A stretch of DNA of 27,858 bases, taken from positions 1 through 27,858 of the forward strand of contig CAZKGJ010000002.1 of assembly GCA_964552415.1 (NCBI GenBank), written 5' to 3'. This document shows, in pieces, positions 13,849-17,376 of this stretch (positions are counted from its first letter, which is position 1; every line of letters begins with the position of its first letter). The position numbers were made by a program, and so were the translations under genes. The notes under the pieces were generated by a model. That model saw nothing but the letters and a program-made list of their open reading frames with translations. It had not been told where the DNA came from and searched no databases. This DNA comes from an uncultured Candidatus Saccharibacteria bacterium (lineage in GTDB: Bacteria > Patescibacteriota > Minisyncoccia > JAHIHE01).

Positions 13849-14709
13849 ATGATTGCACAAGCTAAAATTTATCCATGGGCAAAAAAATCCGAATTTGACA
13901 TTGGCAATTTAAAACTACAAAAAGGAAATTATATTATCGTAAAAGACGCTGATGATCGAGAAGGCGATATAGAAGCGATTGAGATACTTGCCGTTAGAGA
14001 AAAAACTTCCGCTGAAAATGCGAGGCCGATTATAAAAATCGCCAACGCTTCCGATATTGAACGAATAAAACAATACAGCATAAAAAAATCTGAGGTATTG
14101 AATTTTATAAAAAGTAAAGTGAGGAGCGGTAATATTAAAATTAAAATTATAGACATACAATTCAGTTTTGACAGTTCGCGGATAAATGTAGCTTTTACCG
14201 CAGCGCAGAGGGTGGATTTCAGAGAACTGGTAAAAGATATTTCAAGGCATTTTCAAAAGTCAATAAAAATGATTCAGGTCGGCGTTCGGGACAGTGCGAG
14301 AAATTTCGGAGGAATCGGTGTATGCGGAAGGTGTTTGTGCTGCGCCAGCTTTTTGAAAAAACTTGAAAGCGTGACTATAAGCGACGCCAAATCTCAACGG
14401 CTGGACAGCAGATCGGCAAGCCGTCTCAGCGGCGTATGCGGTCGTCTTAAATGCTGTATGGCATACGAGGCCAAGTTGTATAACGAGCTGAGTAAAAGCT
14501 TACCCGAAATTGGGCGAGAGGTAATCACGCCGCGTGGAGAAGGCGAAGTTGTGGACTTGGATATTTTATCTCGCAGGGTAAAAGTGCGGCTGGCAGACAA
14601 AACCTCCACCCTTTTTAACTTCGGGAATATAAAATTAATCAGCCGTAATGCGGGGCTGATAAAAAAAGTTAATACGAAATCCATTGTTAGTATTCGCAAG
14701 AATTTCTAA
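13849..14709 (+). CDS. PSP1-domain / stage 0 sporulation YaaT (RicT) family protein
   Basis: RVDFRELVKD, GGIGVCGRCLCC and SGVCGRLKCCMAYE motifs. Confidence 0.88.
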   Translation: MIAQAKIYPWAKKSEFDIGNLKLQKGNYIIVKDADDREGDIEAIEILAVREKTSAENARPIIKIANASDIERIKQYSIKKSEVLNFIKSKVRSGNIKIKIIDIQFSFDSSRINVAFTAAQRVDFRELVKDISRHFQKSIKMIQVGVRDSARNFGGIGVCGRCLCCASFLKKLESVTISDAKSQRLDSRSASRLSGVCGRLKCCMAYEAKLYNELSKSLPEIGREVITPRGEGEVVDLDILSRRVKVRLADKTSTLFNFGNIKLISRNAGLIKKVNTKSIVSIRKNF

Positions 14710-14725
14710 TGTGGCTTGTAAATTT

Positions 14726-15244
14726 ATGAGTTACGACGCCGTCTTATCAACCTTGATTATTCTTTCGTTTTCTGGCATAATTATAACCTTAGTTAGAAAA
14801 ATTCCCGAAGTTTCTTTAGAATATCAGCAGAACAAAGCATTGTACGATACTATAGCCGATAAAAGCGGAAAACTTTCAAGGGCGGAAAATTTGTTTCGTT
14901 TTGTCCTAGTAAGACTTGAGAAGCTCTTGCGCCAGATAAGAATATACATCTTGAAACTGGATGGAAAAACATTCGGATGGATTCAATATTTGCGCAAAAG
15001 ATCTTTGGAAATTACTTACAATGCCAATAAAATTCCGCTGAAATTGCATTTTAAAATAGAAGAAGGCAGGATTTTAAATATACTTGCCAAAAATCCTAAG
15101 AACCCAGAAAATTACAAAAAATTGGGATTATTGTATCTTCAAAGCAAAAATTTTAAAGATGCCAGCGAAGCGCTGAAAGAATACCTGAAACTGAATCCAT
15201 ATGACAAAGAGATTAAAAAAATCTTAAAAGAAATGCCGACTTAG
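14726..15244 (+). CDS. Membrane-anchored TPR-like protein
   Basis: N-terminal TM segment and a C-terminal TPR-like NPKNPENYKKLGLLY...A...L.LNP. ATG 14726 preferred. The stop codon overlaps the split tRNA shell. Confidence 0.7.
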   Translation: MSYDAVLSTLIILSFSGIIITLVRKIPEVSLEYQQNKALYDTIADKSGKLSRAENLFRFVLVRLEKLLRQIRIYILKLDGKTFGWIQYLRKRSLEITYNANKIPLKLHFKIEEGRILNILAKNPKNPENYKKLGLLYLQSKNFKDASEALKEYLKLNPYDKEIKKILKEMPT

Positions 15245-15418
15245 CTCAATGGCAGAGCAACTTTTTTGCGACGGCCCCGCACCTTTTACGCCACCTTAGC
15301 TCAGGGGCAGAGCAACTGTTTTGTAAACAGTAGGTCCTCGGTCCGAATCCGAGAGGTGGCTCTCACTAAAAAGTGTGGGGTAAATAAATCGTCGGTTCAA
15401 GTCCGACAGTCGGCTCCA
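15235..15418 (+). pseudogene. Split tRNA-Thr-like shell interrupted at the anticodon by a ~100-110-nt insert
   Basis: Acceptor GCCGACT (15235-41)/AGTCGGC (15408-14) plus TCCA, D arm GCTC/GAGC, and T arm GTCGG-TTCAAGT-CCGAC are all perfect. The anticodon region is interrupted after 15268. Confidence 0.7.
15290..15361 (+). tRNA. tRNA-Thr(TGT), nested
   Basis: Full cloverleaf GCCACCT/AGGTGGC with ACTGT-TT-TGT-AA-ACAGT. T loop is TCCGAAT (C55 variant). No encoded CCA. Confidence 0.9.
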
Positions 15419-15419
15419 C

Positions 15420-15503
15420 GGGCGGATACCGAAGTAGTCAAACGGGGCAGACTGTAAATCTGTTGGCCTCCGGCCTTCGAAGGTGCAAATCCTTCTCCGC
15501 CCA
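15420..15503 (+). tRNA. tRNA-Tyr(GTA)
   Basis: GGGCGGA/TCCGCCC acceptor, GCAGA-CT-GTA-AA-TCTGT anticodon arm, long variable arm. Confidence 0.93.
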
Positions 15504-15512
15504 CATAAATAC

Positions 15513-15585
15513 GCCGTTATAGCTCAGTTGGCAGAGCAACTCCATGGTAAGGAGTAGGTCCGCGGTTCAAATCCGCGTAACGGCT
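15513..15585 (+). tRNA. tRNA-Thr(GGT)
   Basis: GCCGTTA/TAACGGC acceptor, ACTCC-AT-GGT-AA-GGAGT anticodon arm, T arm CGCGG-TTCAAAT-CCGCG. Confidence 0.95.
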
Positions 15586-15615
15586 CAGATAATTTTAACA
15601 ATATTTCAAAATAAT

Positions 15616-15771
15616 ATGTCGCAAGAAAGATTAACAAAACTGCAGTGTACGGCATGCAAAAAAATCAATTATCTTACTTTTAAAAGCAAAGGTGCTGCGA
15701 AAGACAAGATGGAAATTATCAAATTTTGCAAATCGTGCCGTAAACATACGCCACACAAAGAATCAAAATAA
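15616..15771 (+). CDS. rpmG: 50S ribosomal protein L33 (Zn-binding type)
   Basis: LQCTACKKINY, KFCKSCRKHTPHKE. True start is 15616; the longer ORF in the track overlaps a tRNA. Confidence 0.95.
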   Translation: MSQERLTKLQCTACKKINYLTFKSKGAAKDKMEIIKFCKSCRKHTPHKESK

Positions 15772-15777
15772 AGACGT

Positions 15778-15945
15778 AGGAGCGTAATTCAGTGGCAGAA
15801 TGACAGTCTTTCTACATGCCACAGCATAGGGCCTTGATGTCAATGGCAGCATGGCAGTCTCCAAAACTGCTCGTAGAGGTTCGAATCCTCTAGGCCCTGC
15901 AATGCGACGGGCAGGCAAAACCGGATACGGGGGTCAGTATCTTTT
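15778..15945 (+). pseudogene. Split, decayed tRNA-Trp-like shell interrupted at the anticodon
   Basis: 5' half AGGAGCG-TA-ATTC-AGTGGCA-GAAT-G-ACAGT-CT (15778-15809). 3' remnant CA-AA-ACCGG-ATAC-GGGGG-TCAGTAT-CTTTT from 15916. The 3' acceptor strand is not recognisable. Confidence 0.55.
15828..15899 (+). tRNA. tRNA-Trp(CCA), nested
   Basis: AGGGCCT/AGGCCCT acceptor, GCAGT-CT-CCA-AA-ACTGC anticodon arm, T arm AGAGG-TTCGAAT-CCTCT. Confidence 0.93.
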
Positions 15946-15960
15946 ATTATTGCAATAATA

Positions 15961-16680
15961 ATGATAAAAATGATAAAAAAAAACCCAAATCATATTGTGT
16001 TTATTATGGACGGCAACAGAAGATGGGCAGCAAGCCATCTTTTGGAATCTTATAATGGACACGAAAAAGGCGCGCTGGTTGTAAAAGAAATGATTAACGA
16101 GGCGGTAAATCTAAAAATTCACTGCTTTTCTTTCTGGGGTTCTTCACTAGACAATATTGTTAAACGTCCAAAGGCAGAAGTGGCATATCTGTTTAAACTG
16201 TTCAGGAAAAAATTTGACGAATTGGCAGAAGACAAAGAAATTCATAATAATCAGATAAAAGTAAACGTGCTGGGGAGGTGGAACGTTCTATTCCCCATTG
16301 AGACAAAAAGCGCGATTCAAAAGGCGATAGACGCAACCAAAAATTACGGCAAATTTTATTTAAACTTTTTGCTTGCTTACAGCGGTAAAGACGAAATGGA
16401 AAGCGCGATTAAGGACATAGTGGATCACGCAAGGGAAAACACTGATTTAAAAATAAATTCTTCTTTAATCAAAAACCATCTTTTTACCAAAGACCTGCCA
16501 CCGGTTGATTATCTCATCCGCACTGGCGGTAACCCCCACCTCTCAACAGGATTTATGATGTGGGATGTTGCCGACGCGCAGTTATATTTTTCCGAAAAGC
16601 TTTGGCCCGATTTCACCCGAGAAGATTTTAGAAAAGCGATTACTGATTACGGTAAGCGGAGAAGAAAATTCGGAGCATAG
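15961..16680 (+). CDS. uppS: Undecaprenyl diphosphate synthase (cis-prenyltransferase)
   Basis: HIVFIMDGNRRWA, YSGKDE, VDYLIRTGG and LWPDF motifs. Confidence 0.94.
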   Translation: MIKMIKKNPNHIVFIMDGNRRWAASHLLESYNGHEKGALVVKEMINEAVNLKIHCFSFWGSSLDNIVKRPKAEVAYLFKLFRKKFDELAEDKEIHNNQIKVNVLGRWNVLFPIETKSAIQKAIDATKNYGKFYLNFLLAYSGKDEMESAIKDIVDHARENTDLKINSSLIKNHLFTKDLPPVDYLIRTGGNPHLSTGFMMWDVADAQLYFSEKLWPDFTREDFRKAITDYGKRRRKFGA

Positions 16681-16746
16681 CGAACAAAAATCCCGATTTA
16701 ATTTTAAATACAAATTTATAAGTATTTATTTTTGTTTTTGCGGCAA

Positions 16747-17376
16747 ATGTTTAAAAAAGAGGCACTAATCAAAGAGCTTATTGATGAAGGCTATCTCAAG
16801 ACGCCTGCGATTGTAAGTGCTTTTAAAAAGATAGACAGGGCTGATTTCGTGCCGCAAAATTTAAAAGCTGAGTCCTATATCAATGAGCCGCTGCCCATAG
16901 GATTTGGACAAACAATTTCTCAACCGCTTACGGTTGCTTTTATGTTGGAACTGCTGAAACCAGAACTCGGGCAAAAGATTTTAGATATTGGTTCCGGCTC
17001 CGGATGGCAAACCGCTCTTTTGGCGCAGATTGTTGGCAAAAAAGGCAAGGTGTTCGGCGTAGAGATAATTCCGGAGCTTAAAGAGTTTGGTGAAAAAAAT
17101 GTCGCAAAATACGATTTTACTAAATCAGGAATTGCGAAAATAATTTTGTCCAACGGTTCTGTCGGACTGCAGAGTGAAGCGCAGTTTGACGGAATTATTT
17201 CTGGAGCAATGGCGGAAAAAATTCCGGAAGCGTTGCGCAGCCAGCTGAAAATCGGAGGAAAGATGGTGATTCCCTGCCGCGGAAGCGTCTGGCTGGTAAT
17301 CAAAAAAGCGGAAAACGAATTTGAGGAGTATGAATATCCTGGATTTGCCTTTGTGCCGCTGGTGACTAAAAAATAA
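16747..17376 (+). CDS. pcm: Protein-L-isoaspartate O-methyltransferase
   Basis: IDRADFVP, PLPIGFGQTISQP, LDIGSGSGWQTA and FAFVPL motifs. Confidence 0.94.
   Translation: MFKKEALIKELIDEGYLKTPAIVSAFKKIDRADFVPQNLKAESYINEPLPIGFGQTISQPLTVAFMLELLKPELGQKILDIGSGSGWQTALLAQIVGKKGKVFGVEIIPELKEFGEKNVAKYDFTKSGIAKIILSNGSVGLQSEAQFDGIISGAMAEKIPEALRSQLKIGGKMVIPCRGSVWLVIKKAENEFEEYEYPGFAFVPLVTKK

Follow-up and report, generated by a model that had tools for sequence, protein, structure and literature searches.

The rpmG-linked tRNA-Trp locus

The stretch of DNA analysed here (the window; 27,858 nucleotides, the whole of contig CAZKGJ010000002.1 as presented) comes from an uncultured Candidatus Saccharibacteria bacterium and contains, after the ribosomal protein gene rpmG, a tRNA-Trp gene that is interrupted by a second, complete tRNA-Trp gene. 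The complete gene lies on an insert of 106 nt (15810-15915) in the anticodon of the rpmG-linked tRNA-Trp, whose two separated pieces are referred to below as the outer shell; an insert together with the tRNA gene that it carries is called a cassette. The window is contig C2 of the source assembly (G000), a metagenome bin of 710 kb in 109 contigs with 40.6% G+C and 92% completeness. By gene content and relatives the genome belongs to the ultra-small Patescibacteria (Candidate Phyla Radiation, CPR). The gene order is tsf, PSP1, a TPR protein, a tRNA cluster (Thr-UGU, Tyr, Thr-GGU), rpmG, tRNA-Trp, uppS, PCMT and YceG. The features of the locus are listed below.

15616-15771 (stop codon 15769-15771), plus strand: rpmG, ribosomal protein L33 (Pfam PF00471, E 1.9e-16); upstream neighbour and orthology anchor of the tRNA-Trp locus
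15778-15809, plus strand: 5' half of the outer shell, tRNA-Trp positions 1-33 (acceptor 5' strand, D arm, anticodon-stem 5' strand, C32, U33)
15810-15827, plus strand: 5' flank (arm) of the insert, 18 nt, with no similarity to tRNA-Trp (p=0.6)
15828-15899, plus strand: inner complete tRNA-Trp(CCA) (ARAGORN, Rfam RF00005, Trp covariance model R1)
15900-15915, plus strand: 3' flank (arm) of the insert, 16 nt, with a G-rich run at its end like other cassettes
15916-15934, plus strand: 3' remnant of the outer shell, tRNA positions 35-54 (C35, A36, rest of the anticodon loop, anticodon-stem 3' strand, variable loop, T-stem 5' strand, T54)
15935-15960, plus strand: non-homologous spacer up to the uppS start, at the site of the lost T loop, T-stem 3' strand and acceptor 3' strand
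15961, plus strand: start of uppS (PF01255)

The coordinates of the 5' half, the insert and the inner tRNA had been given in the original prediction and proved exact. The left junction is uncertain by one base, as either T15810 is a mutated C34 (34|35) or C34 has been lost (33|34), and the insert is therefore 105-106 nt long. Inspection of the sequence at the Trp junctions revealed neither a target-site duplication nor direct repeats.

Logan contigs, which were assembled independently, were used to check both junctions; they come from three runs of a single mine-drainage sample (probably the source, and not an independent sample). In each of the three runs a single contig covers the locus from 15546, 15548 or 15637 to 16000 with 0 differences, and its depth across the Trp nest equals that of the flanking single-copy DNA. 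No contig that skips the insert was found in these runs. The spanning contigs in three runs of one sample exclude a chimera of binning or assembly.

Origin and state of the outer shell

The relatives used for comparison are G001, of the same genus; G002 and G003, of the same family and another genus; G008 and its congener G010, of another family of the order; G442, of another family of the class; and G521, of a further family. The order rpmG then tRNA-Trp is kept in G001, G002, G003, G008, G442, G521 and others, and in G002 and G003 an ordinary, uninterrupted tRNA-Trp stands directly after rpmG. The 5' piece of the shell (15778-15809) is identical to this gene of G002 and G003 at 29 of 32 positions, and the 3' piece (15916-15934) agrees throughout (19/19) with the G002 gene at positions 35-53. 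Local alignment scores were 49 for the 5' piece and 38 for the 3' piece, against 11 +/- 2 for 2000 shuffles in both cases (maximum 24 and 26, respectively; p<=0.0005), which bears out the earlier view that the flanks are the halves of a tRNA-Trp. A search of the whole 710-kb assembly with the G002 gene (blastn-short) returned the two shell pieces as the top matches (E 9e-6 for the 5' piece and 1e-4 for the 3' piece), and the inner gene was matched at E=2 only. Over 51 positions the shell is 94% identical to G002, 92% to G003, 78% to G001 and 71% to the inner gene. Because the shell pieces, and not the inner gene, best match the gene of G002 and G003, the outer copy is the orthologue of the rpmG-linked tRNA-Trp of the relatives and the inner copy the arrival.

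Little is left of the 3' side of the shell. Only GGGGGT remains of its T arm and everything 3' of T54 is gone, so that the outer 3' acceptor strand is lost, as previously noted, together with the 3' strand of the T stem. The wobble-only T arm (GGGGG/CTTTT) that the original prediction had drawn could not be upheld, since the CTTTT strand lies within 15935-15945, an 11-nt segment whose similarity to tRNA-Trp is no better than that of shuffles (p=0.7). Of the three substitutions in the 5' piece, two (C27 to A and G29 to A) break two of the five anticodon-stem pairs, the 3' strand being unchanged, and such stem-breaking, uncompensated substitutions indicate relaxed constraint on the shell. The rejoined halves were not called by ARAGORN even at relaxed thresholds (-ps80). 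With its intron and overlay options the program again reported no outer Trp, while it found the outer tRNA-Thr shell of the window, miscalled as Ala with a 98-nt intron. Because stem pairs are broken, the 3' part of the T arm and the acceptor strand are lost and the halves are not called, the outer tRNA-Trp is most likely non-functional. The substitutions number 3 of 32 positions in the 5' piece and 0 of 19 in the 3' piece, and the worse look of the Trp shell seems to stem from one deletion at the T loop and not from slow decay. The shell is broken at two places, at 33-35 and after T54.

The inner tRNA-Trp gene

ARAGORN and Rfam call one tRNA-Trp(CCA) at 15828-15900. The inner gene scores 40.1 bits with RF00005 (gathering score 29) and 88.5 bits with the Trp model R1 (E 1e-22). 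It folds into a regular cloverleaf with a 7-nt anticodon loop, the anticodon CCA, A1-U72 and G73, and the CCA end is not encoded. The identity set of bacterial tryptophanyl-tRNA synthetase, as in E. coli and B. subtilis tRNA-Trp, consists of the anticodon CCA, G73 and A1-U72, and on reading its sequence the inner gene matches this set. It is the sole complete tRNA-Trp in the 92%-complete assembly, as judged by model R1. Since no promoter-like site was found within the insert, the inner gene probably shares its transcript with rpmG and uses the old upstream signals, as the ancestral gene did, and the tRNA presumably matures by RNase P and 3' processing. The inner gene is presumed to be a functional tRNA-Trp. 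The earlier suggestion that it is the functional one of the two fits a complete gene that is the only tRNA-Trp in the assembly and an outer copy that appears dead, function being predicted from sequence.

The inner gene shares 59-73% identity with the Trp genes sampled from its own order and class, of which the closest are the cassette-borne Trp copies of G442 (73%) and G008 (70%). It is identical at up to 62 of 72 positions to Trp genes of distant lineages, Saccharibacteria included, tRNAs being too short for a firm phylogeny. With an identity of 71% it is, on this comparison, clearly no duplicate of the shell. Two further ideas were tried and rejected. A single mobile lineage of the inner Trp genes of G000, G008 and G442 is not supported, their pairwise identities being 67-73% only, and the D-loop/T-arm pattern of the inner Trp genes is no signature of cassettes, as it was found in more than 119 genomes, mostly Firmicutes and Mollicutes.

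Flanks of the Trp insert

The inverted segments that had been noted in the flanks, tgcc..gcat and atgc..ggca, do pair (4+4 bp), but the strength of the pairing is barely above chance: the flank duplex has -10.5 kcal/mol against -6.4 +/- 2.2 kcal/mol for shuffles (p=0.048), which is marginal. The fold of the whole Trp insert is no better than that of shuffled sequence (z=-0.13). In contrast, a helix of 13 bp closes the Thr cassette 540 nt upstream (fold z of -3.4), and the Trp cassette of G008 has arms of 17 bp and a fold z of -6.2; the arms of the Thr, G008 and G442 cassettes were all strong in the duplex test (p=0.001). The Trp arms are of a different, weak sequence type compared with the Thr arms.

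A 10-mer of the 3' arm (15902-15911) is shared with a hairpin in a dead tRNA-Ser copy of the same assembly (C1:27476-27491), and the 3' arm resembles one arm of a G001 Thr cassette. The window Trp arms matched no other cassette in 201 genomes of the class or in a metagenome scan, and order- and class-level blast searches with the insert matched the tRNA part alone (75-84% identity) and never the arms, so that no close relative of the cassette was found. Metagenome matches to the T loop plus the 3'-arm 10-mer, 13 in number, were all rejected as chance matches in unrelated high-GC DNA. Palindromes of the form CCTGCC...GGCAGG elsewhere in the assembly (C36, C71, C90) have no tRNA context.

Age and recurrence of the Trp insertion

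G001 carries the Thr insert at the same site and with arms homologous to those of G000, yet its tRNA-Trp is uninterrupted. For this reason the Trp event is by parsimony probably younger than the Thr event, which would predate the split of the genus. The original prediction had taken the Trp event to be older or more decayed; a greater age is at odds with the presence of the Thr insert and the absence of the Trp insert in G001 and with a shell that was truncated once and has few substitutions. A second tRNA-Thr cassette is present in G001 in the D stem of the same Thr shell (L002:900-1190).

A survey of 46 relatives with the tRNA-Trp covariance model collected 30 Trp loci, three of which are nested (G000, G008 and G442); G521 is an additional case. 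The G008 shell is identical to the intact gene of its congener G010 at 36/36 and 21/21 positions (57/57) and lacks 17 internal nt, positions 38 to about 55. The G442 junctions are the same as those of G008, after CTCCAA in the anticodon loop and before CGA[TG]TCC in the T loop, and no target-site duplication was found at the junctions of either. This pair of junctions (CTCCAA/CGA[TA]TCC) occurs in four dead Trp copies from three families with different fillers. The arrangement in G521 is as follows.

G521, L222:1350-1990, minus strand: rpmG, a dead Trp with two empty hairpins, a truncated GIY-YIG gene (52 aa), a live Trp and a second dead Trp

Both dead Trp copies of G521 are broken at the anticodon-loop and T-loop positions of G008 and G442, with short empty hairpins as filler. 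Breaks in tRNA-Trp cluster in the anticodon loop and the T loop, those of the window shell included, and rpmG-linked Trp nests with shared break points are present in four families in all, three besides that of the window. Filled and empty sites with precise boundaries are found among congeners, in G000 and G001 as well as in G008 and G010.

Several other arrangements of tRNA-Trp were observed. After an intact tRNA-Trp, the metagenome-assembled genome DTUPAT2 (L115:4300-4480) has a dead 3' half, with the hairpin CCCCGTATTAAATACGGGG interrupting its T loop, and a repeated copy of the downstream flank. The Trp type that starts with GGG[TA]C[CT]ATAGTTCAATGGCAGAAT, which is the cargo of the G442 cassette, is the ordinary rpmG-linked Trp in several other families (L217, L221, L223, L224). 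In G578 (L216:1440-1561) this Trp type is preceded by a 5' scrap of a 'host-type' Trp, an arrangement that hints at complete replacements that shed their shells.

Nested tRNA genes elsewhere in the genome

Four other loci of the assembly have the same or a related design.

Window 15235-15268 and 15381-15418, plus strand: tRNA-Thr shell with an insert at 35|36 (15269-15380, 112 nt) that holds tRNA-Thr(UGU) at 15290-15362 in 13-bp arms
C12:112-260: tRNA-Glu nest with an insert at 33-35 and tRNA-Glu(CUC) at 158-233
C55:1-200: tRNA-Ser(UGA) nest, to be compared with the intact gene on C96 (49-136, minus strand)
C1:27462-28067 (L064:1240-1845), at a contig end: tRNA-Ser(GCU) module with a dead Ser copy, an 86-aa GIY-YIG open reading frame (ORF; 27723-27983) and a live Ser cut by the contig end

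The Thr and Trp nests do represent the same kind of event, as had been suggested: in each, the anticodon of the resident gene is interrupted by an insert that carries a complete tRNA of the same isotype. The Thr shell keeps a perfect acceptor and T arm. No target-site duplication was found at the junctions of the Thr insert, the Glu insert or either G001 insert. The first 55 nt of C55 are identical to the upstream region and the first 36 nt of the intact tRNA-Ser(UGA) on C96; C55 departs from C96 at 35|36, where 51 nt are followed by a different, complete tRNA-Ser(UGA). The start of C55 looks like a branch of the assembly graph, and filled and empty alleles may coexist in one population. The dead tRNA-Ser(GCU) copy on C1 holds three GC-rich hairpins in its D and T regions, and this module is the only nuclease-bearing one seen in G000.

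On the 3' side of the Glu nest (C12, to 400) lie more debris of Glu 3' halves and a TCCGCC-TTC-GGCGGA hairpin. A mini-hairpin of the form TCCGCC-NNN(N)-GGCGGA has at least 11 copies in G000 and is present inside two nested-tRNA loci; its sites include 2818-2832 of the window, C4:18519 and 18556, C25:3270, C29:4026, C51:122, C55:71, and C106:1081 and 1098. This mini-hairpin may be an 'empty' member of the hairpin family described below.

A family of hairpin-armed modules

The arms of the Trp cassettes of G008 and G442, TCCCGCAC[C]TTTT / AAAA[G]GTGCGGGA, are almost the same as those of the window Thr cassette (12 nt). When 401 genomes of the phylum were searched for this paired-arm pattern at a spacing of 70-100 nt, it was found in four of them, and the reversed pattern, used as a control, in none (0/401). 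Arms of the type CCCGCACYTTT enclose tRNA-Thr in the window, tRNA-Trp in G008 and G442, tRNA-Ile (inside an Ile shell) and tRNA-Pro in G174, and in G336 a GIY-YIG ORF as well as about 20 intergenic elements. These intergenic elements have 12-nt arms, CCCGCACCTTTT / AAAAGGTGCGGG, around non-tRNA cargo of 56-260 nt. One G336 arm pair (C3; L076:1449-1737, 280 bp), with 16 bp perfectly paired, encloses only a GIY-YIG ORF of about 84 aa. In G336, G174, G008 and G075 the arm half-sites pair only at distances of 68-280 nt, and no transposase-like gene was seen inside any arm pair of these four genomes, the sole ORF being the GIY-YIG nuclease.

Comparison of these loci shows a family of hairpin-armed modules, the window Trp insert among them, that Patescibacteria have inside tRNA genes of the same isotype. 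The isotypes are Thr, Glu and Ser in G000 and Trp, Ile, Gln and Leu elsewhere. The arms can be near-identical between genomes, and the cargo is a tRNA, a GIY-YIG gene of about 85 aa, other short DNA or nothing.

Genome-wide, G336 has about 39 arm half-sites (L028, L030-L033, L076), and several of its elements share a 26-nt core. G336 elements have GTCAA[CT] or ATTGAC on either side, a sequence that is duplication-like or -35-like. Rfam holds no family for the arm-bounded elements of G336 and G075.

Small GIY-YIG nucleases near nested tRNA genes

In G336 and G174, modules consisting of a nuclease gene plus a tRNA lie inside Leu and Gln shells, together with extra empty CCCGCC...GGCGGG hairpins. 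The truncated GIY-YIG gene at the Trp locus of G521 is 40% identical to the nuclease of G000 (E 5e-9). Among 17 small GIY-YIG loci surveyed in six genomes, three are no more than 100 nt from a tRNA (rough binomial P 0.0075), and four are wrapped in inverted repeats of 16-23 nt and varied sequence, for which the shuffle maximum was 11-13. The GIY-YIG ORFs of L069 (G008:C44), L073 (G001:C63) and L082 (G001:C156), of 85-106 aa, each lie in their own, unrelated inverted repeat of 16-23 nt. Judged from these sequences, the link of the nuclease to nested tRNA loci holds as an association and not as a demonstrated mechanism. Because the window Trp cassette has no nuclease gene and its arms are weak, we read it as a likely non-autonomous or relic copy that became fixed since it holds the only tRNA-Trp.

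Proposed mechanism and alternatives

We propose that the locus consists of a dead shell around a live inner cassette and that the cassette belongs to a family of replacement-tRNA cassettes that spread by nuclease homing; the probability of this reading as a whole is roughly 0.6. Its descriptive part (insertion, dead shell, live inner gene, family membership) is very probably correct, while homing triggered by a nuclease is a tentative proposal that comes close to an even bet. According to this mechanism, the small GIY-YIG nuclease of autonomous relatives would break tRNA genes, for the most part in the anticodon loop but in the T and D regions as well. Repair would use a donor allele that has the cassette between the two shell halves, and it would copy the cassette in precisely, with no target duplication, as in homing, and with the deletions of the donor coming along. 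The target would be an essential single-copy tRNA gene, so that only cassettes bringing a working tRNA of the same isotype would survive, and the cassette would thereby become indispensable. Copying from a donor would explain the same junction pair and 17-nt loss across families, the host-like shells, the match of isotype and the lack of duplications. A more specific form, homing without splicing, in which a minimal and probably structure-specific GIY-YIG protein of about 85 aa breaks tRNA loops and a nuclease-resistant spare tRNA held in hairpin arms averts lethality, seems to us conceivable and rather speculative.

Several observations weigh against homing as the explanation. The window Trp cassette itself has no nuclease gene, its arms pair marginally (p=0.048) and they have no match elsewhere. 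GIY-YIG proteins of about 85 aa without a visible DNA-binding domain are common in these genomes, so their adjacency to tRNA genes could be partly coincidental, and they match group I intron endonucleases only below threshold (29 vs 56 bits). The cargo tRNAs of G008 and G442 are only 67% identical despite matching arms and junctions, and cargo so divergent does not fit well with simple descent of one homing element. The features common to the inner Trp genes are those of a common bacterial Trp type and not of a cassette signature. Finally, the roughly 20 intergenic elements of G336 with non-tRNA cargo would argue for transposition that is directed by the arms and independent of tRNA homology.

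Such transposition from hairpin ends, in the manner of miniature inverted-repeat transposable elements (MITEs) and combined with a filter of selection, is unlikely as the whole explanation, although it is the alternative to be taken most seriously. The arms would be the terminal inverted repeats of a trans-acting enzyme, insertion into exposed loops or at many sites would need no homology, and only same-isotype insertions would be seen as survivors; the GIY-YIG nuclease may be that enzyme or may be irrelevant. Arms of 12-16 nt that are near-invariant across families and classes around variable cargo are what this alternative leads one to expect, as are the unrelated cargo of the G336 intergenic copies, the divergence of the G008 and G442 tRNAs between identical arms, and the empty hairpins in the D, anticodon and T regions of dead tRNA copies. 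However, no target-site duplication accompanies any tRNA insertion, and the only gene found inside any arm pair is the GIY-YIG ORF and nothing transposase-like. Every tRNA cassette seen lies in a shell of its own isotype, which would need a very strong filter, the identical junction pair and 17-nt deletion across families come about more easily by donor copying, and the window Trp arms are not of the conserved type. Homing and arm-directed transposition are not mutually exclusive, as the nuclease may act on the hairpins themselves.

An ordinary rearrangement, either duplication of tRNA-Trp in tandem with partial deletions afterwards or the scar left by a deleted island that had entered the anticodon loop by means of an integrase, is improbable. 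The anticodon and T loops of tRNA genes are frequent targets of integrative elements, which leave fragments of tRNAs behind, and orphan fragments without a partner do exist (a tRNA-Ser 5' half on C55 of G000 and a Thr 5' scrap in G003). However, the two shell halves stand in register on either side of the inner gene and fit together to within one nucleotide, and the inner gene at 71% identity is no copy of the shell. The junctions have no att-like direct repeats and no integrase is present among the genes within about 2.5 kb (tsf, PSP1, TPR, rpmG, uppS, PCMT, YceG), while the same nested design recurs for five isotypes in many genomes.

Even less probable is an intron or split tRNA, in which the insert would be removed from the RNA by splicing at a bulge-helix-bulge (BHB) motif, by group I self-splicing or by RtcB joining after RNase P and RNase Z. 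To our knowledge all known tRNA introns sit in the anticodon loop, as this insert does; its flanks can pair and RtcB is present in G000, which is common in bacteria and not sufficient. The exons, however, would lack the outer acceptor 3' strand and the T-stem 3' strand, with two anticodon-stem pairs broken and the rejoined halves not recognised, and shells in relatives lack 17 internal nt. The tRNA-splicing endonuclease family (PF01974) gave 0 matches in the 92%-complete G000, four archaea serving as the positive control. An insert of 106 nt is too small for a ribozyme core, and a cmscan search of 14500-16800 matched no group I or II intron model at E<=10, returning only tRNAs and three chance matches. 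With dead exons, no splicing endonuclease family and no intron ribozyme, removal of the insert at the RNA level can, on present evidence from the genome, be rejected. Least credible of all is an assembly artefact that joined the tRNA-Trp loci of two strains, for although the genome is a metagenome bin of 109 contigs and another nested locus (tRNA-Ser, C55 vs C96) sits at a branch of the assembly graph, single contigs from an independent assembler span both Trp junctions without a difference and at the depth of the flanks, and similar nests are present in unrelated assemblies.

Implications

To the general picture the Trp case adds evidence from orthology that the shell is the ancestral gene, presence and absence of the insertion within a genus, recurrence at the same locus in four families with shared breaks, and the same arms carrying Thr, Trp or a nuclease. 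If the proposed reading is correct, tRNA genes of ultra-small bacteria would be repeatedly overwritten by selfish cassettes instead of being stable housekeeping loci, and the cassettes would become indispensable because they kill the resident copy. This reading would account for the odd tRNA fragments and 'pseudo-tRNAs' of CPR genomes and would offer a route for horizontal transfer of tRNAs. A very large family of tiny GIY-YIG proteins of unknown function would gain a role, and a mobile element in an essential gene would have a third solution beside self-splicing introns and inteins, which is to bring a spare. If homing without splicing were true, it would amount to a 'gene-replacement drive' that goes on overwriting tRNA genes, carries tRNAs from one CPR lineage to another and leaves Russian-doll shells behind, and the arm-wrapped nuclease of G336, with its 280 bp, would rank with the smallest known mobile elements that are autonomous. 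For annotation pipelines, nested tRNAs are to be expected, and the shells are best left uncalled.

Comparison with known systems

We found no published description of nested replacement tRNA cassettes in the literature, and the modules apparently represent an unpublished family of selfish DNA cassettes, homing or MITE-like, which break a tRNA gene and supply a spare. The closest functional analogue is SegB of phage T4, a free-standing GIY-YIG homing endonuclease of the tRNA gene cluster, of about 220 aa with a DNA-binding part and with demonstrated activity; it cleaves the tRNA region of a relative, which leads to non-reciprocal inheritance of the nuclease gene and the flanking tRNA genes (PMC2330249). 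In both cases a GIY-YIG gene stands beside tRNA genes and no intron or splicing is involved. However, the nucleases described here are of about 85 aa, predicted and absent from the Trp cassette, and T4 has neither nested tRNAs nor hairpin arms.

Group I introns are known from the anticodon loops of bacterial tRNA-Leu(UAA), fMet, Ile and Arg (bioRxiv 10.1101/2020.01.27.920355). They resemble the cassettes in precise insertion into the anticodon loop, lack of target duplication and patchy presence among close relatives, and some have homing endonucleases. In contrast to the cassettes, they have a ribozyme core of at least 200 nt and functional exons, whereas the present insert has no core, its exons appear dead and a spare gene takes the place of splicing. 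Archaeal BHB introns, split and tri-split tRNAs and intron transposition in Thermoproteales (Fujishima 2009, 2010, as cited in PMC10714607) offer short inserts with paired flanks in tRNA genes and evidence of movement between tRNA genes. They need the splicing endonuclease EndA and intact exons, and the inserts are not known to carry a whole tRNA.

Bacterial MITEs and palindromic repeats (Correia, RPE, REP/REPIN) are likewise small, free of ORFs, bounded by inverted repeats and present in many copies, and the G336 family is similar to them. MITEs, however, duplicate their target and have a uniform interior and an insertion-sequence parent that bears a transposase, while the present modules have no duplication at tRNA sites, variable cargo and only a nuclease ORF. 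Tyrosine-integrase elements such as prophages and islands also target the anticodon and T loops of tRNA genes, restore the tRNA sequence and leave fragments; they bring the displaced 3' (rarely 5') part, att repeats and an integrase, whereas here a whole gene comes on about 100 nt. Within the same phylum, CPR rRNA genes are riddled with mobile insertions and introns linked to homing endonucleases (PMC11270868). These, too, lie in essential RNA genes, but they are group I or II introns or are removed from the rRNA, and they bring no replacement gene. Among the systems compared, a whole replacement gene carried inside the broken one appears to be peculiar to the cassettes described here.

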